Source of the DNA: Candidatus Aenigmatarchaeota archaeon
Lineage (GTDB): Archaea; Aenigmatarchaeota; Aenigmatarchaeia; GW2011-AR5
Direction: 5' to 3'
DNA length: 64,000 nucleotides
Assembly: GCA_016184005.1 (NCBI GenBank)
Contig: JACPDL010000004.1
Coordinates: 14,107 to 78,106, forward strand
Made by a program: the position numbers and the translations under genes
In this document: one piece after another, positions 32,024 through 56,406 of the stretch
Layout: every line of letters starts with the position of its first letter
Numbering within the stretch: the stretch's first letter is position 1
Notes under the pieces: generated by a model
What the model was told of the DNA's origin: nothing
Seen by the model: the letters and a program-made list of their open reading frames with translations, nothing else
Database searches by the model: none

Positions 32024-32213
32024 AAATCCTCTATGTTACCATCAACTAATTCGAGAAAAGCAAAGCTTTCCTGAATTTCTCAAAGGGTTTCTGTGAAATC
32101 CTTTGCAGAAAGGTTGATGGTTTCTTTGTGGATTTCTTTCAAGAACATTGCTTTCATCTACTATCTGAAGATAGTAGTTTTTAATGTTCTTAGAATAAGG
32201 CTGCTTTTGCAAG

Positions 32214-35136: not shown

Positions 35137-35865
35137 ATGGAAGAAAAAATAGAATGCCGGGACTGCGGGAAAAGATTTTCCGTGCAGGAAGCCCTTGAGC
35201 AGCACAGGAAGGCGAAGCACGAGGAAATGAAAAAGGAGAGAAAACTGAAGCTCCCGATGAAATGGATTGCAGTTACGGCAATTGTCATAATTATTGCTGC
35301 AGGCGGGTACATGCTGGTTTCGTCCGCACCAAAATACACACCTGTATCAGGGTATAGCGAGCATTTTTTGGGCGCGGAAAACGCTTCTGTGGTTGTCATA
35401 GAGTACAGTGATTTCCAGTGCTCTTTCTGCGGAAGATTCTACCAGCAAACAGAGCCCCAGATTATCGAGGAATATGTTGACACAGGAAAGGTGAAGTTTG
35501 TCTACAGGCACTTCCCGCTGGCGCAGACGCACCAGTATGCACAGAAGGCTGCCGAGGCAAGCGAATGTGCATCTGACCAGGGCAAGTTCTGGGAGTATCA
35601 CGACAGGCTGTTTGATAATCAGAACGCGCTTTTCCCGGCATCACTGAAGAAATACGCTGCGGATATCGGTCTTGACAAGGCCGCGTTTGATGCATGTTTA
35701 GATTCTGGTGTGATGGCTTCCAGGGTGCAAAGCGGTTTTGAAGAGGGTCAGGGCAGGGGCGTGAGGTCAACGCCAACCTTTTTTGTAAATAACGTGAAAA
35801 TAGAGGGTGCCCAGCCTTTTGCTTCATTCAAGCAGGCAATAGAGTCGGAGCTTGGCAAGACGTGA
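35137..35865 (+). CDS. membrane-anchored DsbA-like thiol:disulfide oxidoreductase with N-terminal C2H2 zinc finger
   Basis: N-terminal CRDCGKRF...H...H finger, one TM helix, then a thioredoxin fold with CSFC active site and DsbA-like helical insert. Confidence 0.65.
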   Translation: MEEKIECRDCGKRFSVQEALEQHRKAKHEEMKKERKLKLPMKWIAVTAIVIIIAAGGYMLVSSAPKYTPVSGYSEHFLGAENASVVVIEYSDFQCSFCGRFYQQTEPQIIEEYVDTGKVKFVYRHFPLAQTHQYAQKAAEASECASDQGKFWEYHDRLFDNQNALFPASLKKYAADIGLDKAAFDACLDSGVMASRVQSGFEEGQGRGVRSTPTFFVNNVKIEGAQPFASFKQAIESELGKT

Positions 35866-36547: not shown

Positions 36548-36554
36548 GGTGAAA

Positions 36555-36676
36555 TCATATCGTTCTTGATATAACCCACAACTTTAGTTGTGGGTTTGTT
36601 GAACGATGTGATCCCAACATTGTTTATGTAGTATCTACCGACTAAAGTCGGTAGTTTTAAACAATGTTGAGGATAA
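36555..36676. repeat. compound stem-loop element (CSL family), near-identical to 44098-44222; its 3' end abuts the osmC start codon
   Basis: ATCATATCGTTC..[ACCCACAACTTTAGTTGTGGGT]..GAACGATGTGAT then CCCAACATTGTTTA..[ACCGACTAAAGTCGGT]..TAAACAATGTTGAGGATA followed by ATG at 36676. Confidence 0.6.
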
Positions 36677-37206
36677 TGACTATACATGAAGATGATATGA
36701 AACTAAACAATGTAGACATGAACAAGGCTGGCGCTTTTTTGGAAGAGGTAAAGGCCGACAGAAACAAGGCAATAAAAATAAAGCGCGTGGAAGGCGAATG
36801 GAATTTCTCGGGTGTGCAATTCGCTGCAACATTAGAGCATGCGACTGGAAAGACTATCGTTGAGGCAGACGGCCCTCCTATAATGGGCGGCTCCGGTTTG
36901 AAGCCCGACCCTGTGCAGTACTGTTTGTTTGGCCTTGCAGCATGCTTTGCGCAGACATTCGCGTCGATAGCTGCCGAAAAGGGCATTGAGCTCAAGCGCC
37001 TGAAGGTGTCTGCAGAAAATAAAGTCAACCTGTCGAGGTCTTTGGGAATTGGCGACGAGCCGATAGTGGAAAATGTGAAACTATTTGTCACTGCTTCCGG
37101 CAGCGGCGACCTGAAAGAAGTGGAGCAGCTTGCGAAGGATAGGTGCCCGGGCGTTTACTGCCTGACGAACCCGATAAAACTGGATATAGAAAGCGACTTC
37201 TCCTAA
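36676..37206 (+). CDS. OsmC/Ohr-family thiol peroxidase
   Basis: GGSGLKPDPVQYCLFGLAACFAQTF and CPGVYCL motifs carry the two conserved Cys of OsmC/Ohr. Confidence 0.7.
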   Translation: MTIHEDDMKLNNVDMNKAGAFLEEVKADRNKAIKIKRVEGEWNFSGVQFAATLEHATGKTIVEADGPPIMGGSGLKPDPVQYCLFGLAACFAQTFASIAAEKGIELKRLKVSAENKVNLSRSLGIGDEPIVENVKLFVTASGSGDLKEVEQLAKDRCPGVYCLTNPIKLDIESDFS

Positions 37207-37414
37207 GGAATAAACGGTGACCTGCCATAGCCCGTCATTAAAACTGTAATCTGCCGACTAATTCATGGAGAGCAAAGCTCTACTGAATTCATTAGAAAAT
37301 CTGTAAGATTTTCTATGCACCGGAATAGCTATGCTATTCCGAGTGTCTCAAAGGGCTTCATACGAAACCCTTTGCAGAAAAGTCGGTAGTTTTAAACAAT
37401 GTTGGGGATAATTA

Positions 37415-37645
37415 ATGACTATGAAAATAGTATTCGACAGGAACAAGTGCACAGGCGCTTACTCGTGCGTGCAGGAAGAGCCTGAGAAATGGAAGCCTGC
37501 AAGCGACGGCAAAGTGGATCTGGACGGCTCAGTCCAGAAGAAGCCAGGGATCTTCGAGTGCGCAATAACGCAGGAAGAACTGGAAAAAGCCAGGATTGCG
37601 GCCGCTGTCTGTCCTGCATCCGCCATAAAGGTTGTTGAAGAGTAA
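37415..37645 (+). CDS. single-cluster [Fe-S] ferredoxin
   Basis: 76 aa with C-x5-C ... C ... CP spacing (CTGAYSC...FECAIT...AVCPASAI). Confidence 0.55.
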   Translation: MTMKIVFDRNKCTGAYSCVQEEPEKWKPASDGKVDLDGSVQKKPGIFECAITQEELEKARIAAAVCPASAIKVVEE

Positions 37646-38099: not shown

Positions 38100-38290
38100 T
38101 GCGGCTGAATGTTTTCCGGCTGCATGCGTTTATCTTGGGAGAAGCGAAGCTTCTCCCAAGATATATGGCAGAAACTTCGTTTCTGCCTATACAGGCGGAG
38201 CTTTGCTCCGCCATGTTCCCTAAATCCTTTGGATTTCGGGAATTCCAAAAAGCTGCGCTTTTTGAGAATGTTGGTTTTCCTGTTGCCCTT
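38100..38290. repeat. cluster of short hairpin repeat modules (HPR family)
   Basis: TTGGGAGAAGCGAAGCTTCTCCCAAG, CAGAAACTTCGTTTCTG, GGCGGAGCTTTGCTCCGCC, CCGAAATCCAAAGGATTTCGG and CCAAAAAGCTGCGCTTTTTGAG; the same modules recur at about 10 other sites. Confidence 0.6.
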
Positions 38291-38295
38291 TTTCT

Positions 38296-39585
38296 CTAGA
38301 GCCACTTTACCTTCAGGAAATGGCTTGCGCAGCTCAGGCAGGGATCGTAGGCGCGCAGGAGCTTCTCTATTTCGTATTCTATCTTTTCCTTCGGCAGCTT
38401 TTCCACGCTGTCCTGCACAAGTTTCGCGATGTCTTTTTCTATGTTTATCTGGTTTTGGGCTGTGGGCACAACGACATTTGCCTTCTTTATCTTTCCCGAT
38501 TTGCCAACTGTAAGCCTGTAATATAAAGTGCCGCGGGGCGCCTCTATAACACCTACGCCCACATTTTCCTCCTTTATATCGGTCTTCTGCAGCTCTTCCT
38601 TATGGAACGACGCGGTTTCCAGAAGCTCAATGGAATGGTCTATGCTGTGAAGGATTTCTATTGCCTGCGCCACATTGTTGTGAAAGATGTTGGTTGAAGG
38701 GAATGCCTGCACGTATTCCCTGGCGCTGTCTTTTGTTTCGGGATGCAGCATGCCCTTATTGAGATTGAGGCGCGAAAGGGCGCCCACCATGAACTCCTCA
38801 CCTTCGAATTCAAAGCCAGAAGCTTGCGAATATGGTATGATAACCCTGATAAGATGATCTAAATAGTCCTTCTCTTTTATGCAGATGCCCCTGCTGCTTT
38901 TTATCTCGCCTTCAAGGAAGCTGTAATCGTTCGTTGCCAGTGCCACAAAGTCCGTCTCCCTATCGAATCTTTCATCCCATCTGAAGAACGTATCTATCAG
39001 GTCGATCGCAAGAGGCCTGACGTACCTGAGCTCTTTTATCGCCTTTTTTACGCCTTCTTCGTCAGGTGTGTGCAGAAAGCCGCCTACTGTCGGATAAGGC
39101 GCATGCACGGCTTTGCCTGCCACTAGAGTGGAAAGCGTGTTGCCTGCGCGCTTCAGGTCGAATGAGTCATGTAGCAGCTTGTGTTCCCTTTCGTTTTTTT
39201 CGTCAAAATCCAGTATGGAGTCCTTTCCTATCAGGTCTGGCAGGCTGAAAAAATAAAGATGAAGCGCGTGATCCCTTATCATAAGCCCGTACATCGCAAG
39301 CTTCTTCATTAGCAGCGCCTGCTCCGTAGGCTCTATGCCTACGGCGTTCTCGATTGCCTCGATGCAACACGTCATGTGAGCTATGCTGCACGTGCCGCAT
39401 ATGCGCGACATAAGCTGTGGAGCGGTTGTTATCGGCTGCCCTCTTACAGCCTGCTCGTAAAATCTCTGGTTCTCTGTTATCTGCAACTTTACGTATTCAA
39501 CCTTGTCGTCGCGCACGCGGACATCCAGGTTTGCATGGCCTTCCACCTTTGTCAGGTTTTCTATGTTTATGTCAAAGCTGTGCAT
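38296..39585 (-). CDS. [NiFe]-hydrogenase large (catalytic) subunit, group-3-like size
   Basis: N-terminal EGH and RICGTCSIAH motifs and C-terminal DPCLSCASHF motif for Ni-Fe ligation; 429 aa as in sulfhydrogenase alpha subunits. Confidence 0.85.
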   Translation of the reverse strand: MHSFDINIENLTKVEGHANLDVRVRDDKVEYVKLQITENQRFYEQAVRGQPITTAPQLMSRICGTCSIAHMTCCIEAIENAVGIEPTEQALLMKKLAMYGLMIRDHALHLYFFSLPDLIGKDSILDFDEKNEREHKLLHDSFDLKRAGNTLSTLVAGKAVHAPYPTVGGFLHTPDEEGVKKAIKELRYVRPLAIDLIDTFFRWDERFDRETDFVALATNDYSFLEGEIKSSRGICIKEKDYLDHLIRVIIPYSQASGFEFEGEEFMVGALSRLNLNKGMLHPETKDSAREYVQAFPSTNIFHNNVAQAIEILHSIDHSIELLETASFHKEELQKTDIKEENVGVGVIEAPRGTLYYRLTVGKSGKIKKANVVVPTAQNQINIEKDIAKLVQDSVEKLPKEKIEYEIEKLLRAYDPCLSCASHFLKVKWL

Positions 39586-41080
39586 CTATGCCTAACCCCT
39601 TTATTTGTCTGTTCATGACTGCAAGAAATCCTGTTTCCGTCATCGGGCAGCCTGGAACGATATCGTCCACTTTCACGATTTCATGAAGCGGCTTGACCTC
39701 TTTGCTGTAGCTGAAAGTGCTGACTATCGGCTCTATTTCCCTGCTCCTTCTTTCGTCAAATGTATTTCTCTGTCCCGAAGGCATGCCTGTTATGGCGCAT
39801 GCGCCGATGGCGATAAGCACCTTTGAATTTTCCCTTATCTTTCTCAGCTCTTCGGCGGCTTTCTCGTTTGATATCGCGCCCTCAACGAAAGCTATGTCCA
39901 GGTTCGTCATGTCGTTCTGTTTTCTCAGCGCTCTTGCGTAAGTTATGTCAGCCACGCTTTTTATTTTGTCGTAGTAGTCGTTGAGGATTTCGGTGAACAC
40001 TATAGTGCTGTCCTCGCAGCAACTGAAGGAGAACCACCCGATGCGAAGCTTCCTTTTCGGCGCAGCCGGTTCTGCGATCCTTCTGGCTGTTGTGACTGCG
40101 GCCTGAACCGGTGTTGACGACGACGCTTGCGCTGTCTGCTGCGCTGATGTCCCGTGCACATAATCGAAGTAAAGTTCCCGTGAGCGCAGGTATTTGATGA
40201 CATTCACGGCGGCGTTGCAGCCGTCGCCGACGTTTTTTGCTATCTGCCTGCAGCGGCCCGCGCAGTTGCCAGCCGCGAAAGCGCCCTCCATGCTCGTCAT
40301 GTTATTTTCGTCCACAACAAGCACGTTGTCCCTTATTTCCAGTCCGAGATCTGTGGCAAAATCCAGTGCGCCGGCTGTGCCGCATGCCATGAAAACGCCG
40401 TCAAATTTCAGCTTCGTTCCGTCTTCCAGAACAACGCCTTCAAACCATTTTCCGCCAGTGAATTCCTTTACATTCGACACGAGCGTCTCTATCCGCCATT
40501 TTTTAATTTCCCTGCCGTAATTTTCGGAGAAATCGAATTTCGTGGCATTCGATATTATTGTTATGTCTTTCGTATAGGAAAGCGCCTCTACGGCGTCCTC
40601 TGCCGCATGATTGCCGCTGCCTATTATGGCAAGCTTCTTGTTCTTGTACAGGGGGCCGTCGCATGACACGCAGTAATGCACGCCCTTGCCTGTCAGCTCC
40701 TGCTCGTTTTTGATACCCGAAAGCCTTATCGGCACGCCCGTAGCTATTATCATGGCCCTGCTTTTCAGGTTTTCTCCTTTGCTTGTCTTTATCGAGAAGA
40801 ATTTTTTGCCGCTTTCTTCGCAAGCAGTAGCAGCGACAACCTCATCTTTGAGGAACTTGACATCGAATTTTTGCGCCTGCCTTATTCCTTTGTTCAAAAG
40901 CATGGAGCCGTCTACGCCTTCCGGAAAACCAAAATAATTTTCTATGTGCATTGCCAGCTGCGCCTGGCTCTTCTCAACCATTCCTATTATCAGCGTTTTC
41001 AGTTCAGCGCGGCCGCAGAAAATAGCTGCCGACAGGCCCGCAGGGCCGCAGCCAACTATTATGACGTCGCATTCCTCCAC
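39572..41080 (-). CDS. fusion protein: thioredoxin-reductase-like flavoprotein (CVSC redox-active disulfide, no NADPH-binding Arg pair) plus [NiFe]-hydrogenase small subunit proximal-cluster domain
   Basis: Residues 1-300 resemble TrxR: IVGCGPAGLSAA FAD site, CVSCDG, second GSGNHAAEDA dinucleotide fold; the HRR NADPH motif is replaced by ISNATKF. A Q/A/S/T-rich linker follows. Residues about 340-502: GWFSFSCCEDS...DIAFVEGAIS...AIGACAITGMPS...VPGCPM match the small-subunit four-Cys proximal FeS site. Confidence 0.75.
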   Translation of the reverse strand: MEECDVIIVGCGPAGLSAAIFCGRAELKTLIIGMVEKSQAQLAMHIENYFGFPEGVDGSMLLNKGIRQAQKFDVKFLKDEVVAATACEESGKKFFSIKTSKGENLKSRAMIIATGVPIRLSGIKNEQELTGKGVHYCVSCDGPLYKNKKLAIIGSGNHAAEDAVEALSYTKDITIISNATKFDFSENYGREIKKWRIETLVSNVKEFTGGKWFEGVVLEDGTKLKFDGVFMACGTAGALDFATDLGLEIRDNVLVVDENNMTSMEGAFAAGNCAGRCRQIAKNVGDGCNAAVNVIKYLRSRELYFDYVHGTSAQQTAQASSSTPVQAAVTTARRIAEPAAPKRKLRIGWFSFSCCEDSTIVFTEILNDYYDKIKSVADITYARALRKQNDMTNLDIAFVEGAISNEKAAEELRKIRENSKVLIAIGACAITGMPSGQRNTFDERRSREIEPIVSTFSYSKEVKPLHEIVKVDDIVPGCPMTETGFLAVMNRQIKGLGIDAQL

Positions 41081-41997
41081 TAGATTCCCCTCTGCTCACT
41101 TTTTATTCCTGCAGCAAGATAGGCGCCTATCAGTATAACGGCGGAGCCCGCAAGCTGCACGGGCGGTGTAGGTTCACCCAGGAATGCCGCGCCTATGGCG
41201 AGCGAAACAACAGGAGCCAGCAGAAGCAGGACCGCCGCCTTTGACACGTTGATGAGCTTCAGCGAGCAGTAGTAGAAAAGGACGTAGCTGAACAGCAGAA
41301 GCGTGGACATGCCTATGTTGAGGATCTGCGCGTTTGTCAGTGCGAGCAGTGTGTCCGTCTTATTCATCAGCAGGGCGGCGCCGAATAAAATAAGCCCGCC
41401 GAAAAACATCCTTGCGAATGACACTATGAAATTTGTTTCACCCTTTACCATGGCTTTTTTCGCTATGACATTTTCAGCTGCCCAGAGTAATGTGGCTAAA
41501 ATAACGAGCATGTCTCCAAGTTGGGGGTTTAACCACAGTTCAGAAGGAACTATCGATGAGAAGTATATCGCAACGGTGCCTGCAAACATAAGCGACGTTG
41601 CGGCAAGATATTTTTTTGTTATCCGCTCCCTGAGGAAGAAGAATGCAAGCAAGGCGGTGTAGAGTGGCAGCGTTTTGTGGAGGAACGCCGCATGGCCAGC
41701 CGTGGTCAGCTTAAGCCCTGTAAAGTACAGGAAAAATGCAGCGGAGCCGCCAATGACTGCTATGGCTGCCAGGTATTTCCAGGAAACGGAAATGAATCTT
41801 TGCCTTTTCTTCGCTTTTGATTTGAACAGCCACCACGAAAGAAGAAGGAAAACCGTGCCGATAATTACGGAGCGCACGGCAGTGAAAACCAGCGGCTCGA
41901 TGTTTACTATGAAAATCTTGTTGGCAGGTATGGCTATGCCGCTGACAAAAGCTGCAATAGCCGCCAGTAGCGTTCCAAGCGTCTCTTTTTTCATCAC
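41080..41997 (-). CDS. EamA/DMT-superfamily transporter located inside the hydrogenase operon
   Basis: 305 aa, 10 TM helices, duplicated EamA domains. Confidence 0.65.
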   Translation of the reverse strand: MMKKETLGTLLAAIAAFVSGIAIPANKIFIVNIEPLVFTAVRSVIIGTVFLLLSWWLFKSKAKKRQRFISVSWKYLAAIAVIGGSAAFFLYFTGLKLTTAGHAAFLHKTLPLYTALLAFFFLRERITKKYLAATSLMFAGTVAIYFSSIVPSELWLNPQLGDMLVILATLLWAAENVIAKKAMVKGETNFIVSFARMFFGGLILFGAALLMNKTDTLLALTNAQILNIGMSTLLLFSYVLFYYCSLKLINVSKAAVLLLLAPVVSLAIGAAFLGEPTPPVQLAGSAVILIGAYLAAGIKSEQRGI

Positions 41998-42524: not shown

Positions 42525-42686
42525 CTATTCTGCCTTCTCCACGGCCATTCCTGCGGCGCAGTATACATAATCGCCTGTCTTTGCGTCGACAAGGTCTATC
42601 CGCACCTCGGAAAGCTTGCCGTTTATGTCAACAACGGCCGTGTTGCCTTTTATTTCCAATACCTTTCCAACAGAGGTGACGCACAC
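42525..42686 (-). CDS. hypC: hydrogenase assembly chaperone HypC (GTG start, 53 aa, below ORF-track cutoff)
   Basis: Reverse translation gives (M)CVTSVGKVLEIKGNTAVVDINGKLSEVRIDLVDAKTGDYVYCAAGMAVEKAE with Cys at position 2 and a HypC beta-barrel pattern. Confidence 0.55.
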   Translation of the reverse strand: MCVTSVGKVLEIKGNTAVVDINGKLSEVRIDLVDAKTGDYVYCAAGMAVEKAE

Positions 42687-42719: not shown

Positions 42720-44048
42720 TTACCAGAGCAGCCCTATGAATGCGAGGAGCAGAAGGCCGATGAAGGCTATCACTATTCCGGCTTTTGCTATGTCCTTCAT
42801 GTTTACGAATTTTGTTCCGTATGCAATAGCCGTTGGGGGCGTGCCGAAGGGGAACATGAAATCGAGGGAAACGCCCATGGCTGCAACAACGACTATGTTT
42901 GTTGTATCTGCTCCTAATGTGGATGCGAGGGCGACGATGATAGGCAAGTAAACAGCTGCTGCTGTCGTATTGCTTACGACGACCGTCATAAGGATGCCAA
43001 AGAACCCAAGAAACAACAGGAGCGCAAGGATGCTCTGGCCACTGACAACATTTGAAAGAATAGAAGCGAAGGAGCTGTCTAGAGCCGATTGATGTATTCC
43101 AAAACCGAGCGCAAGCCCCCCGCCTACAAGGAGCAGCGTTGGCCAGTCAATTCTTGTAAAGTCCTCTGCCTCAAGAAGCCCCGCAAAATAGAATAGAATT
43201 ATTGGAACAATGGCAACAACGCTGCTGGATATGCCGTGCAAAGGCTCAGAAAGCCACAAGATGATTGTAAGCAGAAATATCACCAGTACTTTTTTTTGGT
43301 TTCTGTTTATTTGTGGCGCCTTCTCCAGGGTTGAAATGTTTCTTTTTTCGGGTTTGTACAGCAGAACAAGTATAGCCCAGCAGAATACCAGCAAAATTAA
43401 CATGAATGGGAAGCCTCGGTAGAACCATTCAAAAAAGCCGAAGGAAGTTCCAGAATCCTGTAGGAATTTTGCTGCTATGACATTCGGCGTGCTTCCGACT
43501 ATAGTTCCCAAGCCGCCTATTGTTGCGCCGTAAGCAACAGCAAGGACGGATGCTTTTCCAAAATTTGATTTTCCGGCTTTCATTCTGTTTTTTGCAAGTA
43601 TCACAAGTGCTATTGGCATGATTATTGCTGCAGCTGCAGAATTGCTTATCCACATTGATATGAAAGCGGTTGTAAACAGGAGCGCAAAAACAACGTTTTT
43701 CGTGCTTCTGCCGGCTGTTTTTATGATCTTATACGCTATGTACTCGTCCAAGCCGTATTTTCTCATTGCCATGGCGATCACGAATCCGCCAAGTAAAAGC
43801 ACTATAACCGGATCGAAGTATTGGGAGAAAACTTCTTTGGAGTCAATGTCTGCCACTGTTGTCAGAAGGAACGCAACAAAAAGTGCCGTTACATGGAGAG
43901 GAATAGCCTCTGTTATCCACAAACAAACAGCAAGTGCCATGACAGCGAGCATGACTTGTTGGTTGCCTGGCAGCCCAAAAGGGAGCACATAAACCAAAAA
44001 GGCCGCGACAAATGACAAAGTTATGAATTTTGCGCGCACGTTCTTCAT
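42720..44048 (-). CDS. ArsB/NhaD-superfamily (SLC13/DASS-like) anion permease
   Basis: 442 aa, more than 12 TM helices, internal duplication typical of the ArsB/CitT/NhaD fold. Confidence 0.65.
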   Translation of the reverse strand: MKNVRAKFITLSFVAAFLVYVLPFGLPGNQQVMLAVMALAVCLWITEAIPLHVTALFVAFLLTTVADIDSKEVFSQYFDPVIVLLLGGFVIAMAMRKYGLDEYIAYKIIKTAGRSTKNVVFALLFTTAFISMWISNSAAAAIIMPIALVILAKNRMKAGKSNFGKASVLAVAYGATIGGLGTIVGSTPNVIAAKFLQDSGTSFGFFEWFYRGFPFMLILLVFCWAILVLLYKPEKRNISTLEKAPQINRNQKKVLVIFLLTIILWLSEPLHGISSSVVAIVPIILFYFAGLLEAEDFTRIDWPTLLLVGGGLALGFGIHQSALDSSFASILSNVVSGQSILALLLFLGFFGILMTVVVSNTTAAAVYLPIIVALASTLGADTTNIVVVAAMGVSLDFMFPFGTPPTAIAYGTKFVNMKDIAKAGIVIAFIGLLLLAFIGLLW

Positions 44049-44097: not shown

Positions 44098-44222
44098 AAA
44101 ATCATATCGTTCTTGATATAACCCACAACTAAAGTTGTGGGTTTGTTGAACGATGTGATCCCAACATTGTTTATGTAGTATCTACCGACTAAAGTCGGTA
44201 GTTTTAAACAATGTTGAGGATG
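44098..44222. repeat. compound stem-loop element (CSL family), near-identical to 36555-36676
   Basis: About 120 nt nearly identical to the osmC-upstream copy; ends AAACAATGTTGAGGATGAGC. Confidence 0.6.
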
Positions 44223-46379: not shown

Positions 46380-46515
46380 AATATATACGATTTTCTCTTG
46401 GGAGAAGCGAAGCTTCTCCGAGATCTTCGGAGAAACTCCGTCTCTCCGAGATTCCGAAATCCTTTGGATTTCGAGAATTCCAAAAAGCTATGCTTTTTGA
46501 GAATTTAGCAGGTTA
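46380..46515. repeat. HPR hairpin-module cluster
   Basis: TTGGGAGAAGCGAAGCTTCTCCGAG, CCGAAATCCTTTGGATTTCGAG and CCAAAAAGCTATGCTTTTTGAG, the same modules as at 38100-38290. Confidence 0.55.
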
Positions 46516-46539: not shown

Positions 46540-46735
46540 AGAAATCATATCTTCTTAATATACCACCGACTAAAGTCGGTGGTTTGTGAGAAGATGTGAT
46601 CCCAGAGACATTGTGTTTCATCTGCTGTCTAATCCTAAATCAAGCAAAGCTTGATTTGAATTTCTCAAAGGATTTTGAAGAAATCCTTTGCAGAAAAGAC
46701 AGCAGTTTTCAATGTCTCTGAGGATAATTAGAGTA
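46540..46735. repeat. CSL-family element carrying inserted HPR modules, abutting the 23S 3' end
   Basis: ACCGACTAAAGTCGGTGG, then outer stem CCCAGAGACATTG...CAATGTCTCTGAGGATAA enclosing HPR hairpins. The outer stem covaries relative to the other copies. Confidence 0.55.
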
Positions 46736-47136: not shown

Positions 47137-47793
47137 CTAAAGCATAACATCAGAACTCACAGAAACGGTCACACCGTTCTGAATTGCTGAAGAATCAGGA
47201 ATCCATTTTTTTATCAGAATATCAAATTTTCTCTGTTTTTCTGGGTGTGGAATTTGTATTGTTTTATAGAATTTCAATACATCTTCCTTTCTACCTATTC
47301 TTAAGATAAACTCGGTTTTGTTTTTTTCTAGAAAACATGTTGATTCTATATCCATTTCTCTTAGAACGTCTTTAAACCACATTATCATTTCTTGGTTTTT
47401 TGACCAGATTTCTACTTTTGCTCTCATTCTATCATGAGTAACGCTTCCATCGCCAGCTATCCATCCACACAAATAATCTTTTCGATTTTTTATGGAAAAT
47501 AGTTGAGGTGGTTTAATTGTTTTTGATTTTGCGCCCGCTGGAATGTTATATTGCTCCACAAGCGTTTTCCATAAATCTCGTGAAGCTACGCGAACTACAT
47601 ACTTACCATCACTAAAACCTGATGAAATAAAAGAAATCTTTGGTGTCTTTTTTGTATTTGCAATAAACAGAGGAATTACAATTCTTTCTAGAAATTCTAA
47701 ATCTTTGTTTATTACATAAACTGAATAGCCACCTAATTTTTGTATGTGACCGTCACTTCCAACTATTCCAGCTAGCAAATCTAAATCAGACAT
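47137..47793 (-). CDS. LAGLIDADG homing endonuclease (double-motif) encoded in a 23S rRNA intron (intron about 47118-47835)
   Basis: LLAGIVGSDGHI and LCGWIAGDGSV motifs about 100 aa apart. The flanking exons join as ...AGCTGGGCAAGAATCAGG / CCAGTTTGGTC, corresponding to the E. coli 23S region around position 2593. Confidence 0.8.
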   Translation of the reverse strand: MSDLDLLAGIVGSDGHIQKLGGYSVYVINKDLEFLERIVIPLFIANTKKTPKISFISSGFSDGKYVVRVASRDLWKTLVEQYNIPAGAKSKTIKPPQLFSIKNRKDYLCGWIAGDGSVTHDRMRAKVEIWSKNQEMIMWFKDVLREMDIESTCFLEKNKTEFILRIGRKEDVLKFYKTIQIPHPEKQRKFDILIKKWIPDSSAIQNGVTVSVSSDVML

Positions 47794-49039
47794 GTCTAAC
47801 TTTTATTAGTTTGTTTTATACTGATTTCTATATTGCGTTAGATAGTATATAGATATCCTGATTCTTGCCCAGCTAACGTGCCCTTTTAATCTGTGAACTC
47901 CAGCACCCTTGGCTGCTGCTGCACAGCCAGGAGAGGACGAGCCGACAGCGACGCCGCAACGCACGGGGTCGATTTGTTCTCCGCATTGCATGGAATAAGC
48001 GTAGTAACGCCAATTTCATTGCTAGGTAAATCAACACTTATCCTGATACTAACGCCAATTTTCATTGTAAGCTTTTTGCTTAACTCTATCGGTTGAGGGT
48101 ATCAGGATTCGCCTAATCAGCCTGAGCACATCTGAGCTCTTCGTTTGGCTAAAACTGCTAAGGCAAAGATAGCTCTGAATAAGTTTTGATTAAGCTAACT
48201 TTGACTTCCAATTAAAGAGTCAGACTTTCAGGCCTGCGGATAAGAACTCTCACCCGCCACGACACCATTATCCCCGAGGTAGCTTTTCTCATGTCACAGT
48301 CAGCCATCTAGGCCAAACTGCGTATCGCTAACTCACGCTTTCACGGTTGGACACCATTATGTTAGGAGTCCAATCAATGCAGCTTTTGCGTTTGCACTCT
48401 ACCCGCGATTTCTGACCGCGGTGAGCTGCACTTTGAGGGCCTTTGATATAACCTCGAGCATCGCAAGGGATTATACATGCTATGCTTGATACAATTTCAA
48501 AGGCGTACCGCCCCAGTCAAACTATCCACCTGCTGCTGTCACGCTTTCGCGTTAAGCAGTAGAGTCAAAAAAGGGTAGTGTTACATTGTCGCCGAAGCTC
48601 CTACCTACACTATACAATCCCAACTCAACCACAACAACAAGCTATAGTAAAGCTCTACGGGGTCTACTCTTCCCACTGGAGGTCTCTGGCCTAATCACCA
48701 GAACAATAGTTTCGCCGAGTTCCAGTTCGGGACAGCACCCATCTGGTTAATCTATCATGCAGGCCAACTGTTACAGCCTTTTCCTCATAATATGCTTTCT
48801 TTTTCCCAAGGGTTTCTCTTTGCGAAAGAAAAAGGCTTATTTAATTGGCAAGGGATTTAACGAATCCTCTAACATGACGTTTTTAGTCGTGATAGGATTT
48901 TACGCTACCTTAAGACCCTCAGAGTTAGGGCCGGCCTACAGCGGGGCTTCGACCGGTTGAAACCAGTTTTAACACACCGCTAGTGGCCACGACTCGCTGG
49001 CTATACTAAGCCTTTCGGCTTTGCAGCCAGCTATGTTTG

Positions 49040-49591
49040 TTAACTCCGAAGAATAGGTTTCCTTATCTTGATTCCACGGACGCTTTTCCTGAAAATTTCT
49101 ATAGATTTCGCTCTGTATATCTGAACTCCAAATATTTTGCCGAATCTATAGATTTTGCAGGTCAAACCTTGCTTGCTAAGGAACTCTGAAATTGCTTCCA
49201 GAAGCTTGAGGTGGCTGTTATAGATTACAATTCTGTCTGTAACAGTCCCTTCTGCGTCAAAAAATCCTGAAATGAAATCCCATTTATCTTTATCCTGTAG
49301 ATTATCAAAAAACTCTACAGGATTTTCTCTTAGGATCTCGAATTCTTTGTACAAATTTTTGGAATAAACTAATGATCTAGTCTTATCCAAAAATCCGTAC
49401 TGATGAACTCGTAATTCCATTTCTCTGAATTTTTTAGACGCTTCTTCGGCAATTTCCTTATTTCTGTTGCACTGATCTATCCATACTGCGAACGCACGAT
49501 TCTTTCCGTGATTCATCGTACCGTCGCCGTACAGCAGACCTGCAAGGTAAGCATCCATCAAGAATTTACATGCTGCGTGGCACATAAACAT
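49040..49591 (-). CDS. LAGLIDADG homing endonuclease (double-motif) encoded in a second 23S rRNA intron (intron about 49030-49615)
   Basis: LAGLLYGDGT and ISGFFDAEGTV motifs. The ORF begins right after the exon sequence GGACTGTTTAACAAAC (the conserved GACUGUUUAAUAAAAACA region). Confidence 0.8.
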   Translation of the reverse strand: MFMCHAACKFLMDAYLAGLLYGDGTMNHGKNRAFAVWIDQCNRNKEIAEEASKKFREMELRVHQYGFLDKTRSLVYSKNLYKEFEILRENPVEFFDNLQDKDKWDFISGFFDAEGTVTDRIVIYNSHLKLLEAISEFLSKQGLTCKIYRFGKIFGVQIYRAKSIEIFRKSVRGIKIRKPILRS

Positions 49592-52500
49592 TTCTGTTTT
49601 CTACTCTTCAGGTTTGTTAAACAGTCCGATGGATCTTGTCACTGCGACCTGCCCATCACTGAGCAGGCACGTCATATACCTAAGATACGACGCTAATTTG
49701 CCGAGTTCCCTAAACTGGATTATCTCGAACACCTTCGCCTTCTCGGCGAGGGGCACCTGTTTCCCGAATCCTTTCCGTAAACGCTTTTCGCGTGAGTCGG
49801 AAAGGGTTTGTCGGTTCTGAGTACGAGCGTTCAATGTCATAACATACCAGGATTTTCAAGGGCTCCAGGAATTATCCAAAGCCGCCATACGGCAGCCTTA
49901 TCGCGCCTTCCCAAAGTTCTCGTCATGATGACACTCCCTTTGGTTGAGCGTTTAAACATAGCGACAACCATGTTCGGACTATCCCGAAGCGTCTCCGGTA
50001 TGGTAAACATAGAGCGGTTCGGGAATATTAACCCGATCTCCATTCGCGCACTTCTTCTTAAGGGTGCACTTAGGCTCGACTTACCCCCAGCAGATAAACT
50101 TTACTGGGGAACCCTTGCCCCTTAGGTGGACGAGATTCTCACTCGTCTGAATTGCTACTCCCGGCAGGATCTTCATTGCTGCTAGGTCCACACCCGCTTA
50201 CGCGGACGCTTCTGCCCTCGCAGCACGCCTCCCTACCACATGCAGTTTGCTGCATGTCATTTGTATCGGCAAGGGACTTAGCCCCGTCCATTTTCCCCGC
50301 CCTGAAGCTCGGTGGGTCCGCTATATCGCGAGAAGCCCCTTCTCTTGTAAGAGAAAGGCCCTTGGGTTCAAAGAGAACTTTTACTCGCTTCGCTCGAATA
50401 TTATATTTTGTAATAATGCGAACACAGCGAGCCCATTAGTTTTCTTTTCCCAAGGTCTTTTCTTTTCTGCAGAAGACGAACGTCTTCTGCAGAAATCCAA
50501 GAAGCTTTTGCTTCTTAGGATTTGCAAAAAGAAAAGCCTTCTTTACGCGTTGTTTGAAGGGTGGCTGCTTCTAAGCCTACCTTCCCACTGTCTGAGCTTC
50601 AAGACCAAGTTCGATACACTTAGTCCCTATTTAGGGGCCTTAACAAATGTCTCGGTTGTTTCCGTCTCGGATGCCAAACTTACTCCAGGCACCCTCACTC
50701 CCGCCTGCGCAACAGCAGATTTGGAGTTTGACAAGGTGGTTGGACCTCTCGGCCCTTAGCCATCTAATCAGTGCTCTACCCTGCTGTCAGCCATAGGCGA
50801 GGCTGCACTTAGATGCATTTCGGGAGGAACCAGCTATCACCAGACTCGATTGGCTTTTCACCCCTAACCCCAGGTCACCCGACAAGTTTGGACTATGTTC
50901 GGTATCAGGCCTCCATTTCGCTTTCGCGAAACTTCACCTTGCCCAGGGCTAGATCGTCTGGTTTCGGGTCTCAATCCCGTGACTAATCGCGCGTTAACAC
51001 GACGAACCTTGTTGCCTGCGTTCTATCGCTTTCGCTTCGCATTTCTGCTCGCCACGAGAATGAACTCCCTGCCCCGTTTTTCGAAACGGACGACGGAATC
51101 ATCTGCTCTTGCGAGCAGCGTTACCCGTCTAACTATAGGTACCTGGTTTCAGGCTCTTTTTATTGGGTGTTACCCCTTCTTTTCAGCTTTCCGTCACCGT
51201 ACTACTGCGCTATCGGTTTCAGGCAGTATTTAGGATTGGATCTAGATGAGACCCGTATTCCTGCTCCTAATTCAAGAAACAGTACTCTGGATACTCGCCA
51301 TTCACCTTCTCAACTTCGGATACGCGGCTGTCACGCTTTGGCGCGCTGCTTATGCTGAAACTTTTCAGAAGTTTTTGATCAAACTTTTTCTAAAAAGTTT
51401 ATCCAGCAGACTTCTCCTCGTTGAATGAGGCAAGACACGAGTCCAAACACCACATTGCTTTGTCTTTTCAGCAAAGCTTCGGTTTGTCCTTTGCTGCTTT
51501 CACTCGCCGTTACTAACAGCATCGCAATTGCTTTCTTTTCCTGGCCGTAATAAGATGTTTCAATTCTGGCCGTTCGCCCTCCCTTGCGGGAGTATACAGG
51601 ATGTCCCATTCGGCAATTCTCGGTTCGAAGACTGCATGCGTCTCGCCGAGACTTTTGGCAGCTTACCACCGCCTTCGTCGCCACCTGAACCAAGCCATCC
51701 ACCAAATACCATGGGAGCTAGCTATCTTTACCTCCGGACCTGTGACCGCTTCATATGTTTTTGAAAAGGAAAACGCTAAAAGCGTATTCCATTTGCTCTG
51801 CGCTTAACCCAGCAAATTTCTTCGTGGGCCGCAATCATACTAGATGATTATGAAATTACCAGATATTTTTGAACGATCAAAGCTTCATTCGACATTATTC
51901 ACATCTTGTTAACACTGTTCAGAATTAGACAGAGAGAAAGCATAGATACGTTCTTGATTTTGCCATATGCCATCTACCTGCTGCAAACTTCGTCTTTTGC
52001 CACAAAGACCAAAGCCACTCTGAACAGCTTTCGGTAGTTCAACTTTATTGTAGAAATGCAGGATTTCTGACCCTGCGTAACCAGAAGTAATGTATAAAAA
52101 TATAAAAAGGTTTGGGTGGGCTCAATAAACAAGTTCTGGATGATCTTTGCGCAAAAAACATCTTATAGCTGGAACAAGTTGCATAACTACTGCGTCATCT
52201 TGTTTACGAGCAAAGACATCGTAATGAAATTCTCCATGAGTTACTGTACGAAGATATGTTAATTCTGGGTTTAACGCACCCTTGCGCTCATTTTGAGAAT
52301 GAACGAATTCTTCTGCCGTGAATGGTCACTAATTAATCTATTGTCCAGAACCCCTTTATTAATTTTCAAAGTATGAAGAAACACGCAAATTTAAAATCAG
52401 AGTTCATACAATTAAGATTCAAGCGGGGGTTCCCTAGCCTGGTCAACAAATCCCTTTCTTTAAAGAAAGGTCTTTGTATGTCCCAAAGAACATTTGGGAT

Positions 52501-53791: not shown

Positions 53792-56406
<2,615 letters not shown>

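Follow-up and report, generated by a model that had tools for sequence, protein, structure and literature searches.

Two overlapping genes on the reverse strand of the 64,000-nucleotide stretch analyzed here (the window) encode a [NiFe]-hydrogenase large subunit and a fusion protein in which a thioredoxin reductase (TrxR)-like flavoprotein is joined by a low-complexity linker to a one-cluster [NiFe] small-subunit domain (Table 1). A sequence-only reading of this DNA had proposed that architecture, with an FAD GxGxxG motif, a CVSC disulfide, a second dinucleotide fold, and ISNATKF in place of HRR, together with a 14-nt overlap with a 429-aa large subunit carrying both Ni-binding motifs. Motif positions in both proteins were checked by script, and every one of these elements was recovered where it had been placed (overlap, 39572-39585). 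Residues 5-286 of the fusion match Pfam Pyr_redox_2 (3e-36), residues 5-298 match NCBIfam TRX_reduct (1.3e-64; 217.9 bits, under the cutoff of 343), and residues 355-489 match Pfam Oxidored_q6, the [NiFe] small-subunit/NuoB fold (7e-20); NCBIfam also returns FrhG/HydD N-terminal matches. The large subunit matches Pfam NiFeSe_Hases (3e-30). The domain matches of the two proteins are far beyond chance, with E-values down to 1e-64.

Table 1. Features of the hydrogenase locus, by window position
Feature	Coordinates	Strand	Basis or remark
Small single-cluster ferredoxin, 76 aa, C-x2-A-x2-C...CP	37415..37645	+	Pfam Fer4_15 4.6e-10
Probable HycI/HybD-type large-subunit endopeptidase, 127 aa	37698..38081	+	convergent with hydrogenase genes
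[NiFe] large subunit, 429 aa	38296..39585	-	NCBI MBI2233253.1
L2 DPCLSCASH, large-subunit residues 414-422	38320-38346	-	script
L1 RICGTCSIAH, large-subunit residues 61-70	39376-39405	-	script
Fusion gene: TrxR-like flavoprotein, linker, one-cluster [NiFe] small-subunit domain	39572..41080	-	502 aa, GTG start
[NiFe] small-subunit domain, proximal-cluster fold only, residues 344-502	39575..40051	-	
PGCPM, fusion residues 476-480	39641-39655	-	cluster cysteines
GACA, fusion residues 426-429	39794-39805	-	cluster cysteines
SCCEDS, fusion residues 353-358	40007-40024	-	cluster cysteines
Low-complexity Q/A/S/T/P linker, residues ~306-343	40052..40165	-	
TrxR-like domain, residues 1-305	40166..41080	-	
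ISNATKF replacing HRRDGFR, fusion residues 176-182	40535-40555	-	script
Second dinucleotide motif GSGNHAAE, fusion residues 154-161	40598-40621	-	script
Redox disulfide CVSC, fusion residues 137-140	40661-40672	-	script
FAD motif GCGPAG, fusion residues 10-15	41036-41053	-	script
EamA/DMT-family transporter, 305 aa, abuts fusion gene	41080..41997	-	Pfam EamA 8e-39
HypC-like/DUF6390-related protein, 175 aa	41994..42521	-	weak Pfam HupF_HypC and DUF6390 matches
HypC chaperone, 53 aa, N-terminal MC motif	42525..42686	-	NCBIfam hypC_hupF 2.6e-8
DASS-family anion symporter, 442 aa	42720..44048	-	NCBIfam dass 316 bits (>198.6-bit cutoff)

All four NiFe-ligand cysteines are present in the large subunit, the catalytic motifs of which are invariant among six homologues and which ends in a 7-residue C-terminal extension (FLKVKWL). 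Its best PDB match is the sulfhydrogenase I alpha subunit (9nez_D, 3.5e-64), and that of the small-subunit domain is the N-terminal half of the Pyrococcus furiosus sulfhydrogenase I delta subunit (9e15_A, 9e-16), with HoxY as a further match (5xf9_C, 6e-15). The pair thus resembles group 3b sulfhydrogenases (P. furiosus SHI HydABDG; Thermococcus kodakarensis Hyh), which provide the best PDB matches for both subunits (9nez_D, 5yxy, and 9e15_A) and are likewise cytoplasmic with a short C-terminal extension. However, HydB and HydG are missing here, the small-subunit part of the fusion lacks the C-terminal two-cluster domain, the proximal-cluster CxxC (TSCYGC) is replaced by SCCEDS, and the NCBIfam scores (243 and 232 bits) lie far under the equivalog cutoffs (700 and 880). 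The linker ranges from ~14 to 95 residues among fused homologues, in frame in all of them and without sequence conservation. In the AlphaFold model of the fusion (pTM 0.55), the linker is disordered (pLDDT <50 at residues 302-340) and interdomain packing is predicted without confidence.

A search for the fusion in other genomes yielded ~28 non-redundant, full-length fused homologues (58-83% identity) from independent NCBI, JGI, ENA, and Logan assemblies, with a mean column identity of 66% and every catalytic residue kept in both domains. The identical protein (NCBI MBI2233254.1) was found on four contigs from separate runs or assemblies. In loci L006, L007, L043, and L077, the same modules are encoded separately as a TrxR-like protein (300-313 aa), a small subunit (161-163 aa), and a large subunit, with abutting stop and start codons. 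In Woesearchaeota, TrxR-like genes (53-57% identity) share an operon with the genes for the ferredoxin and the hydrogenase protease, and this operon converges on the small- and large-subunit genes. A neighbor-joining tree places the fused forms in one clade nested within the hydrogenase-linked standalone TrxR-like forms. Although the low-complexity linker could in principle mask an assembly join, and split versions do occur (L006 and L007), an artifact (frameshift, misassembly, or decaying pseudogene) is effectively refuted by the recurrence of the fusion across runs and independent projects, by the conservation of both domains, and by the existence of split versions. Because the same three modules occur in both fused and split forms, they are likely to be functionally linked (Rosetta-stone reasoning).

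The TrxR-like domain retains the determinants of disulfide chemistry. Across its clade, CxxC is kept, the DG after it and Y145 do not vary, 108/108 sequences have the G(K/R)G motif for thioredoxin docking, and the position matching F142 of the Escherichia coli enzyme is hydrophobic. ISNATKF aligns in register with HRRDGFR of E. coli TrxB, and HRR is absent from all 120 closest relatives, which carry I(I/V)SNxxxF instead. With the HRR/R arginines lost and neither a conserved basic nor an acidic (NADH-type) residue in their place at the end of beta-2, NAD(P)H is unlikely to be the electron donor. The second motif, G(N/S)G(N/D)HAAE, is preserved within a strongly conserved segment, so binding of some nucleotide-type ligand is possible. 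The best PDB match is 5nii_A (1.5e-50), which carries GEGxxAxN and VxxxTQGKxxSI, the motifs described for DvTRi, a TrxR reduced by neither NADH nor NADPH and whose donor is not known (PMC5627308). Judged by these sequence features, the domain looks catalytic and NADPH independent.

Loss of the NADPH site had been likened to that in ferredoxin-dependent TrxR variants, and the parallel holds in part. DvTRi (5NII), FFTR (6GNA), DTR (5J60), and Thermoplasma acidophilum TrxR (3CTY) share the fold, FAD site, and CxxC with the present domain and have likewise lost the HRRxxxR 2'-phosphate site; FFTRs pass single electrons from the Fe-S protein ferredoxin to FAD. In contrast to TRi and FFTR, in which GxGxxAxE is degenerate (PMC5627308, PMC10880999), that motif is retained here, and the former NADPH site reads I(I/V)SNxxxF rather than TQ/NGK. 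TRi was also published as absent from Archaea (PMC5627308), whereas the present family is archaeal. None of the known NAD(P)H-independent TrxRs is fused or operon linked to a hydrogenase.

The locus had been described as a two-gene unit; the coupled pair is real but sits in a larger conserved cassette containing HypC, a HypC-like protein, an EamA transporter, a HycI-like protease, and, in this genome, a ferredoxin. The transporter is conserved across DPANN and CPR loci and holds the same position in L001, L003-L007, and L013. HypC scores 33.6 bits, under the 48-bit NCBIfam cutoff, and the identical gene in L001 matches Pfam HupF_HypC; the adjoining HypC-like protein is conserved in archaeal loci and is probably a maturation factor. 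The window copy of the protease has no Pfam match. HycI is matched by its homologues in L042 (3.1e-5; 24.3 bits, >23-bit cutoff) and, weakly, L003; GN, D18, D56, and H82-D83 are invariant, and the gene occurs in nearly all loci of the clade. No HypD, HypE, or HypF was seen, and maturation is thus not fully accounted for. The ferredoxin gene precedes the protease gene in L007, L017, L042, L081, and L082 as well, and its product is a possible electron relay or alternative acceptor. It lies beside the protease in 6-7 of 10 loci with a separate TrxR-like gene versus 1 of 9 fused loci, which fits a relay made dispensable by fusion. A DASS symporter is found near the cassette in L001, L003, L005, L006, L081, and L082, and its membership in the system is uncertain. 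Neither the cluster nor those window ORFs that were scanned include a beta- or gamma-type subunit, in agreement with the earlier reading. Thioredoxin, glutaredoxin, and peroxiredoxin genes were absent from the window and from ~80 related loci except L062 and L060, where a membrane-anchored WCPHC thioredoxin-like gene lies inside the operon.

The architecture had been considered undescribed, which holds for the TrxR coupling and not for the hydrogenase core. The core is of the 'hyd2' type, a group-3b-related clade reported from CPR bacteria, whose small subunit is truncated and whose function was left uncertain (Jaffe 2020, PMC7304191). Shared features include the length of the small subunit (mean, 164 aa there; ~160 aa here), the lack of beta/gamma subunits, a nearby HypC-like gene, and, in some members, an adjoining PF07992 flavoprotein and small Fe-S protein. 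Large subunits from CPR that our own large-subunit alignment recovered have 47-57% identity, and (S/T)CCED in the small subunit is shared as well. That study considered only CPR genomes, regarded the clade as CPR specific, and made no mention of thioredoxin reductase. The present searches place the clade throughout DPANN archaea as well; the PF07992 partner here is of the TrxR type with CxxC and, in Aenigmatarchaeota, forms one protein with the small subunit.

GTDB species representatives (~34 archaeal and ~39 CPR loci) were scanned for a TrxR-like gene within 6 kb of the hydrogenase. One was present in 13 of the ~34 archaeal loci, in four arrangements, and in none of the ~39 CPR loci. In DPANN, genes of a dedicated HRR-less TrxR-like clade are fused to the hydrogenase, lie adjacent to it, or share an operon with the small ferredoxin and the protease. 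CPR loci instead carry a different flavoprotein, of the ferredoxin/rubredoxin-NAD+ reductase type and without the TrxR-type CxxC, directly upstream of the small subunit. The closest large-subunit relatives (L013 and L015; 71-74% identity) have EamA, small-subunit, and large-subunit genes and no TrxR-like gene near the large subunit; the hydrogenase core therefore also functions with different partners. HypC::HydE together with HydG occurs in some CPR members.

From sequence comparison, we consider the fusion and large subunit to be an H2:disulfide oxidoreductase, most likely an H2-dependent thioredoxin reductase (probability, roughly 0.6). The sequence-only reading had reached the same function, which remains the best supported in view of the fused and split forms, CxxC, G(K/R)G, and the DvTRi match, with details amended. 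H2 would be split at the NiFe center of the large subunit, which would be matured by HypC, the HypC-like protein, and the HycI-like protease. Electrons would pass to the single proximal Fe-S cluster, by homology, and from there to the FAD of the tethered domain, either directly, as described in citing papers for Thermococcus FrhAG and TrxR in vitro, or via the 76-aa ferredoxin, as in ferredoxin-dependent flavin TrxRs. Given the ferredoxin gene in the cassette, its product may be interposed between the proximal cluster and FAD. By homology with low-Mr TrxR, FAD would then reduce the C137/C140 disulfide, and the dithiol would reduce a thioredoxin-type protein or another disulfide. Transfer from H2 to thioredoxin is downhill (E0', -414 mV versus ~-270 mV). 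If this reading is correct, thiol reduction in these genome-reduced archaea is tied to H2.

The concept of H2-driven TrxR reduction is known; novel here is a hard-wired version that does without NAD(P)H, a wiring with no earlier description as a gene fusion. According to the citing papers, FrhAGB of Thermococcus onnurineus passes H2 electrons directly to TrxR in vitro, with FrhB dispensable (Jung 2020, AEM 86:e02630-19; PMC13333549, PMC7278568): a cytoplasmic group-3 [NiFe] core reduces a low-Mr TrxR by protein-protein contact, the chemistry proposed here. In that system, however, hydrogenase and TrxR are separate proteins, without an operon link as far as those papers report; its TrxR uses NAD(P)H in the ordinary way, and its small subunit carries three clusters. 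Here, hydrogenase and flavoprotein share a polypeptide or an operon, the flavoprotein has lost its NADPH site, and the small subunit has one cluster. HoxY of the NAD-reducing group 3d enzyme (5XF9) is likewise a 160-190-aa small subunit that has the proximal cluster alone and hands electrons straight to its partner module, and small subunits fused to a redox partner exist (P0254, a HoxF-like::small-subunit protein; P0356; P0371). Instead of a disulfide reductase, HoxY and such HoxF-like and [FeFe] hybrids have an FMN/NADH diaphorase or an [FeFe] hydrogenase as their partner. The methanogen Mvh-Hdr system couples H2 oxidation by a group-3 [NiFe] enzyme to disulfide reduction. Hdr, however, is a bifurcating Fe-S/FAD enzyme whose substrates are CoM-S-S-CoB and ferredoxin; it has neither TrxR fold nor fusion, and the present large subunit matches MvhA more weakly (1.5e-45).

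An alternative substrate for the CxxC flavoprotein, namely polysulfide, persulfide, S0, or a small disulfide (cystine or CoA-disulfide) in place of thioredoxin, is unlikely. Such an enzyme would be a functional analogue of sulfhydrogenase, whose alpha subunits the large subunit most resembles, and the flanks contain no thioredoxin gene; the operon-conserved EamA protein might carry a thiol or disulfide, its family including the O-acetylserine/cysteine exporter (weak NCBIfam match, 3e-7). EamA is, however, equally conserved in CPR loci whose flavoprotein lacks a TrxR-type CxxC and therefore goes with the hydrogenase core rather than with disulfide chemistry. By homology, the flavoprotein belongs with low-Mr TrxRs, not with CoADR/NSR-type enzymes, and all members of its clade carry the docking signature. 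The S0 reductase activity of P. furiosus belongs to the beta and gamma subunits, neither of which occurs here.

It is quite unlikely that the TrxR-like domain replaces gamma/HoxF as a diaphorase, passing electrons from H2 to NADH or another nucleotide cofactor, with CxxC regulatory or vestigial. The intact pyrophosphate motif of the second Rossmann fold would suit this role, as would the NAD+ reductase-type flavoprotein of the CPR members and, according to the citing papers, the ability of T. onnurineus FrhAGB to reduce FAD enzymes that in turn reduce NADP+. Against it stand the unreplaced HRR/R arginines, the inertness of DvTRi, the closest structure, toward NADH and NADPH, and the invariance of CxxC, DG, and Y145, which is unexpected in a vestigial site.

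That the hydrogenase mainly disposes of ferredoxin reductant as H2, or that the TrxR-like domain gates its activity according to thiol redox state without being a net electron sink, is very unlikely. DPANN and CPR 3b-type enzymes are usually read as fermentative H2 producers (PMC8421398), many loci, TrxR-less ones among them, conserve a ferredoxin gene, L013 and L015 manage without any TrxR-like gene, and sensory small-subunit fusions occur (P0365). Proton reduction by thiols would nevertheless be uphill, the complete TrxR catalytic apparatus is conserved, and the recurrent linkage to the electron-exit subunit, whether fused, split, or operonic, is explained more parsimoniously by a redox partner than by a mere regulator.

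The hydrogenase gene pair forms the end of a tight minus-strand operon in which neighboring ORFs abut or overlap (see the table below). A script check found every motif and coordinate that the sequence-only reading had assigned to the fusion and the large subunit, and the two ORFs overlap by 14 nt as claimed. Residues 5 to 286 of the fusion matched Pfam Pyr_redox_2 (3e-36), and residues 5 to 298 matched the NCBIfam thioredoxin-disulfide reductase model (TIGR01292, 1.3e-64) with 217.9 bits, under the equivalog cutoff of 343.45. Residues 355 to 489 matched Oxidored_q6 (7e-20), whose fold NuoB shares with [NiFe] small subunits, and aligned with the delta subunit of Pyrococcus furiosus sulfhydrogenase I (SHI) and with HoxY, which bears out the assignment of the C-terminal part as a proximal-cluster small-subunit domain. 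Among named families it best matched FrhG and sulfhydrogenase delta, in each case the N-terminal half. In its public entry the fusion is called just "FAD-dependent oxidoreductase," and JGI labels homologues "thioredoxin reductase (NADPH)"; given such vague names, the hydrogenase small subunit is missed in annotation-based hydrogenase surveys of these genomes.

Coordinates of features in the window and in related loci (prefix L)
Feature	Position	Strand	Remarks
DsbA/Thioredoxin_4 protein	35137-35865		membrane-anchored; N-terminal C2H2 zinc finger
OsmC-family protein	36664-37206		
Fer4_15 ferredoxin, 76 aa	37415-37645	+	convergent with hydrogenase operon
HycI-like protein, 127 aa	37698-38081	+	convergent; homologues match HycI maturation protease
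Large subunit, 429 aa	38296-39585	-	MBI2233253.1; RICGTCSIAH 61-70, DPCLSCASH 414-422
Fusion, 502 aa	39572-41080	-	MBI2233254.1; GTG start; GCGPAG, CVSC 137-140, GSGNHAAE, ISNATKF, SCCEDS, GACA, PGCPM
First proximal-cluster motif	40007-40024	-	within fusion
EamA/DMT transporter	41080-41997	-	operon member
HypC-like/DUF6390-related protein, 175 aa		-	operon member
HypC	42525-42686	-	operon member
DASS-family symporter	42720-44048		recurrent cassette neighbor
123-nt direct repeat	36552-36674, 44099-44221		98% identical, hairpin-rich
Pieces akin to 123-nt repeat	32072-32111, 37351-37414, 46562-46604, 46667-46730		shorter
51-nt intergenic repeat	38219-38269, 46454-46504		92% identity
23S rRNA gene	47816-51726	-	archaeal
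LAGLIDADG-type ORFs	47137-47793, 49040-49591		just outside and inside 23S, respectively
16S rRNA gene	53792-55534	+	archaeal
Second TrxR type, 323 aa	L027:9659-10630, L035:7986-8957, L040:7984-8955		downstream of large subunit
WC(P/Q)HC protein, 125-130 aa	L062:5546-5923, L060:5139-5528, L025:780-1163, L031:138-509		N-terminal TM helix
HypC::HydE fusion and HydG	L061:2831-5461, L052, L053, L057, L080		partial in L018
415-aa flavoprotein	L024-L026, L028, L031, L034, L036, L044, L045, L050, L055, L058, L075, L078		directly upstream of small subunit

The thioredoxin reductase (TrxR)-like domain retains all of the FAD-type motifs of low-Mr TrxRs (GCGPAG, IIATGVP, and GAFAAGN, the last with N for D). 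Neither C137 nor C140 varies among 24 fused sequences, and all 120 relatives have the CxxC motif. The residues after CDG are P or A, then L, M, or F, then Y, and the equivalent of Escherichia coli F142 stays hydrophobic. All 108 clade members carry the thioredoxin-docking motif G(K/R)G (defined in PMC5627308). Thioredoxin is a candidate substrate of the domain.

The NADPH site, in contrast, is altered as had been proposed: ISNATKF aligns with HRRDGFR of E. coli TrxB, and no Arg or Lys is conserved at this place. A conventional NAD(P)H-binding domain with an intact HRR found no support, as all 120 of the closest relatives, fused or not, lack HRR and have I(I/V)SNxxxF instead. The best solved relative was 5nii_A (1.5e-50), the TRi of Desulfovibrio vulgaris, a TrxR that is reduced by neither NADH nor NADPH and is recognized by the motifs GEGxxAxN and VxxxTQGKxxSI (PMC5627308). 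The suggested parallel with ferredoxin-dependent TrxR variants held for the loss of HRR but not for the second nucleotide motif, G(N/S)G(N/D)HAAE, which is intact and conserved. In the NAD(P)H-independent enzymes FFTR and TRi, both NADPH motifs (GxGxxA and HRRxxxR) are absent or degenerate, whereas the fusion family has lost HRR alone; it also lacks the TQ/NGK signature of TRi. An extra Fe-S site built from C273, C277, and C288 was rejected because C273 (GDC) and C288 (GxGC) have counterparts in alignments of ordinary TrxRs.

In other assemblies, about 28 further full-length fused proteins were found, at 58 to 83% identity (NCBI, JGI, ENA, and Logan). Conservation is strong in both domains, and the low-complexity linker, which spans about 14 to 95 residues, shows none. 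A single representative stands for the fused family at 50% clustering of 1.84 billion proteins, which makes it a narrow lineage. The cassette (HypC, HypC-like, EamA, fusion, and large subunit, with the putative protease convergent) recurs amid unrelated flanks in loci L003, L004, and L005. In four other loci (L006, L007, L043, and L077) it is split: a TrxR-like gene of 300 to 313 aa is followed directly by a small subunit of 155 to 163 aa and then by the large subunit, and HypC, HypC-like, and EamA genes lie upstream wherever the contig reaches far enough. In a neighbor-joining tree, the closest relatives of the N-terminal domain formed one long-branched clade, with the fused forms as a single subclade and two split forms nested within. 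Two TrxR-like proteins of Woesearchaeota, chosen from the homologue list, were 53 to 57% identical to the N-terminal part of the fusion; each is encoded in an operon of TrxR-like, ferredoxin, and protease genes that converges on the small- and large-subunit genes. Loci L013 and L015, which are close relatives, have the hydrogenase core with no TrxR-like gene. Since the HRR-less relatives form one clade linked to hydrogenase, they make up a dedicated hydrogenase-associated TrxR-like family, of which the fusion is the most extreme form.

Scanning one genome per GTDB species with the large-subunit alignment as the query yielded 73 loci, which we then surveyed by ORF and HMM. They came from Aenigmatarchaeota, Woesearchaeota, Pacearchaeota, Micrarchaeota, Iainarchaeota, and Nanoarchaeia, as well as from numerous CPR/Patescibacteria phyla. 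A short small subunit (about 160 aa) was found in every surveyed locus, the protease was nearly universal, and EamA was common in archaea and bacteria alike. In 13 of about 34 archaeal loci, a strong TrxR-like match lay within 6 kb (7 fused, 2 adjacent upstream, and 4 downstream or convergent); none of about 39 bacterial loci had one. Fourteen CPR loci encode instead a flavoprotein of the ferredoxin-NAD+ reductase type (Pyr_redox_2 with Rubredoxin_C/Reductase_C; see table). It never occurred together with the TrxR-like gene in the surveyed loci; the minimal hydrogenase seems to take one flavoprotein or the other as its partner. A second TrxR type occurs in another subgroup of Aenigmatarchaeota, 0.7 to 2.4 kb downstream of the large subunit (L027, L035, and L040; TRX_reduct, 318 bits). 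It has a CSIC active site and HRGSEFR or HESNEFR at the nucleotide site and is a further linkage of hydrogenase with TrxR. The representative search also returned other fusions of the small-subunit fold (proteins P0254, P0356, P0371, and P0365), among them a HoxF-like protein (Complex1_51K plus NADH_4Fe-4S) joined to a small subunit, a small subunit joined to ferredoxin and [FeFe]-hydrogenase, and a response-regulator/HATPase joined to a small subunit and ferredoxin.

The large subunit (Pfam PF00374, 3.2e-30) has both nickel-binding motifs, which are invariant in six homologues. Its best NCBIfam matches were the group 3b alpha subunits ShyA (242.8 bits; cutoff, 700) and HydA (232.1 bits; cutoff, 880), although neither curated-family threshold was reached. 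Among solved structures, P. furiosus SHI alpha (3.5e-64) and Thermococcus kodakarensis Hyh alpha ranked ahead of Mvh (1.5e-45) and HoxH (2.4e-34). As the sequence-only reading had claimed for the gene pair, beta (HydB) and gamma (HydG; FAD/NADP, 2Fe-2S) subunits were absent from the operon, the scanned window ORFs, and the flanks of about 80 related loci. Jaffe et al. (2020) described two 3b-related clades in CPR bacteria, regarded as CPR specific (PMC7304191). In one of these, hyd2, small subunits are consistently truncated (mean, 164 aa), beta and gamma subunits are lacking, and the neighbors include a HypC-like protein; some members have a PF07992 protein nearby, others an Fe-S protein. The function of hyd2 was left uncertain (PMC7304191). 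The loci studied here match hyd2 in the short small subunit, the absent beta and gamma subunits, the HypC-like neighbor, and the PF07992 flavoprotein near some members. CPR large subunits with an equally short small subunit are 47 to 57% identical to that of the window. The hydrogenase core is therefore probably of the hyd2 type, and the hydrogenase class itself is probably not new; the sequence-only reading had not recognized the architecture as a described class. What stands of that remark is the coupling: we found no paper on TrxR joined to a hydrogenase, by fusion or in an operon, in Aenigmarchaeota, DPANN, or CPR. What is new is that a minimal hydrogenase is coupled, by fusion or in an operon, to a TrxR without an NADPH site and that this coupling is spread through DPANN; the parts of the system, and even its chemistry, have precedent.

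The small-subunit domain (159 aa in total) stops 24 residues past the GCP cysteine and lacks the C-terminal medial/distal-cluster domain of groups 1, 2, 3a, 3b, and 3c. Its match to SHI delta spans residues 12 to 157 of 266 alone, and HoxY, the other match, has one cluster. Cysteines C354/C355, C428, and C478 are invariant. Across the clade, the first proximal-cluster motif reads (S/T)CCED(S/N), with the variants SCSEDS and TGDEGC. SHI delta has CxxC at this place (TSCYGC), whereas the clade has tandem cysteines followed by Glu-Asp, so that the fourth ligand of the cluster could be a tandem cysteine or a carboxylate. Cluster N2 of complex I NuoB has tandem-Cys ligation, of which CCED is reminiscent. 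The proximal cluster may have an unusual ligation and potential. A role of the small-subunit tail FGIDAQL in TrxR docking was rejected because the tail is also present in the TrxR-less locus L013.

Taken together, the intact NiFe site, one-cluster small-subunit domain, FAD site, conserved CxxC and docking motif, and lost NADPH 2'-phosphate site suggest that the system is an H2-driven thioredoxin-type disulfide reductase, a reading to which we assign a probability of roughly 0.6. Electrons would pass from H2 to NiFe, to the proximal cluster, possibly through a ferredoxin, to FAD, to C137/C140, and on to thioredoxin or another disulfide. Two lines of evidence favor a direct route from cluster to FAD. 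First, Thermococcus onnurineus FrhAGB is reported to hand H2 electrons directly to TrxR, with FrhB dispensable, and also to reduce other FAD enzymes and rubredoxin (Jung 2020 and later work, summarized in PMC13333549 and listed in PMC7278568). Second, a ferredoxin gene stands beside the protease in 6 to 7 of 10 loci with a separate TrxR-like gene; among 9 fused loci, the window is the one such case. The Woesearchaeota operon and the analogy with FFTRs, in which the FAD of a TrxR fold is reducible by an Fe-S protein, favor a relay instead, and ferredoxin is a candidate donor to the TrxR-like FAD. AlphaFold2 modeling of the fusion (24-sequence alignment; mean pLDDT, 72; pTM, 0.55) gave a disordered linker and no confident interdomain geometry.

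Among the alternatives, a sulfur or small-disulfide reductase ranks first but is unlikely. In its favor, motif scans, phmmer searches (queries: E. coli TrxA, Methanocaldococcus jannaschii Trx, and the thioredoxin-like protein of L062), and Pfam analysis of unassigned window ORFs found no cytoplasmic thioredoxin, glutaredoxin, or peroxiredoxin near any locus; against it, the docking motif is kept throughout the clade. A nucleotide-linked diaphorase, which would draw on the second nucleotide motif retained in the TrxR-like domain and would have to do so with HRR lost, comes next and is improbable. Lower still we place an H2-evolving or sensing arrangement, which seems quite improbable; from standard potentials, electron transfer from H2 to thioredoxin would be downhill by about 140 mV at 1 bar H2 and favorable to about 10^-5 bar. 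An assembly or frameshift artefact has a negligible chance and was treated as rejected, because the identical protein was recovered from an NCBI Aenigmarchaeota MAG and from four contigs that stem from different sequencing runs. A bolder form of the H2-driven disulfide reductase we hold tentatively, at somewhat under even odds: a new functional [NiFe] class, a self-contained H2:thioredoxin oxidoreductase passing electrons directly from cluster to FAD and bypassing pyridine nucleotides, F420, and soluble ferredoxin alike. In many DPANN, thiols would be kept reduced chiefly or solely by this route, and hyd2 would be a plug-in H2 module on TrxR-like (archaea) or ferredoxin-reductase-like (CPR) flavoproteins.

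On the disulfide reductase reading, a hydrogenase clade found widely in DPANN and CPR, and annotated by routine as NADPH-coupled group 3b, as in DPANN papers (PMC8421398), would gain a defined redox partner and with it a role in physiology. The reading also points to a source of electrons for the TrxR-like enzymes without an NADPH site, a large family in archaea; the same donor question stands for Thermoplasma acidophilum TrxR and D. vulgaris TRi. This testable function and candidate donor for an orphan TrxR family are what give the fusion its interest. If the reading is true, thiol redox homeostasis in genome-reduced, probably symbiotic organisms is tied to environmental or host H2 rather than NADPH, and disulfide repair, peroxide defense, and perhaps ribonucleotide reduction share this dependence. 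With a hydrogenase module and a disulfide reductase on a single polypeptide, the fusion is also an attractive scaffold for H2-driven biocatalysis.

Other thiol-redox proteins were observed near some loci. In two loci the operon itself includes a small protein in which an N-terminal TM helix is combined with a WC(P/Q)HC thioredoxin-like domain: in L062 its gene falls between those of the small and large subunits, and in L060 it immediately precedes the small-subunit gene. The protein also occurs in L025 and L031 and is a possible membrane-anchored disulfide partner. In the window, the DsbA-like and OsmC genes lie 1 to 3 kb from the hydrogenase, and each of L027, L035, and L040 has a similar membrane-anchored DsbA-like gene some 4 kb upstream. 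This proximity may be a coincidental thiol-redox context.

The maturation genes seen were HypC, HypC-like/DUF6390, and the protease, plus HypA in L020, L030, L042, and L065; a NicO transporter occurs in L082. The window copy of the putative protease has no Pfam match, and its homologues match PF01750 with 24.3 bits (cutoff, 23) or weakly. Invariant residues D18, D56, and H82 of the family fit the Asp/Glu-Asp-His metal triad of HybD/HycI; a profile search of the family against PDB sequences returned nothing significant. HypD, HypE, and HypF were absent from the scanned window ORFs and the examined flanks of about 80 related loci, a survey of near-gene context. In five CPR loci (Peregrinibacteria/Patescibacteria) of the same [NiFe] clade, a HypC::HydE fusion (rSAM_HydE, 272 bits, cutoff 254.6; hypC_hupF, 51.9 bits, cutoff 48) and HydG (574 bits, cutoff 312) lie just upstream of the small and large subunits, and a PP2C-like gene separates HydG from the small subunit in L053 and L057. 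HydE and HydG are maturases of the [FeFe]-hydrogenase H cluster. The large subunits of these loci retain RICGTC and DPCMSC, and neither a HydA motif nor HydF was found in their flanks. This suggests that the Fe(CO)(CN)2 unit of those CPR [NiFe] enzymes may be made by HydG, not HypCDEF; we found no literature on HydG or HydE serving [NiFe] maturation. The motif of the window ferredoxin, C-x2-A-x2-C...CP, suggests a 3Fe-4S-type cluster. EamA accompanies the cassette in DPANN and CPR whatever the flavoprotein partner, and its role might be metal uptake or thiol export.

The two copies of the 123-nt repeat flank a 7.5-kb block that holds the genes from OsmC through the DASS transporter (OsmC, ferredoxin, protease, large subunit, fusion, EamA, HypC-like, HypC, and DASS). 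The repeat may be an intergenic element present in many copies, or it may record past mobility of the block. One copy of the 51-nt repeat sits in the gap that separates the 3' end of the large-subunit gene from the protease gene. A scan for bacterial-type promoters and terminators was set aside as uninformative, the host being an archaeon. The window as a whole yielded no tRNA. The two rRNA genes are not linked and have opposite orientations; the 16S gene is about 265 nt and the 23S gene about 0.9 kb longer than the respective model. ORF-like translations containing KKRSFLE recur near 4.0 and 5.6 kb.
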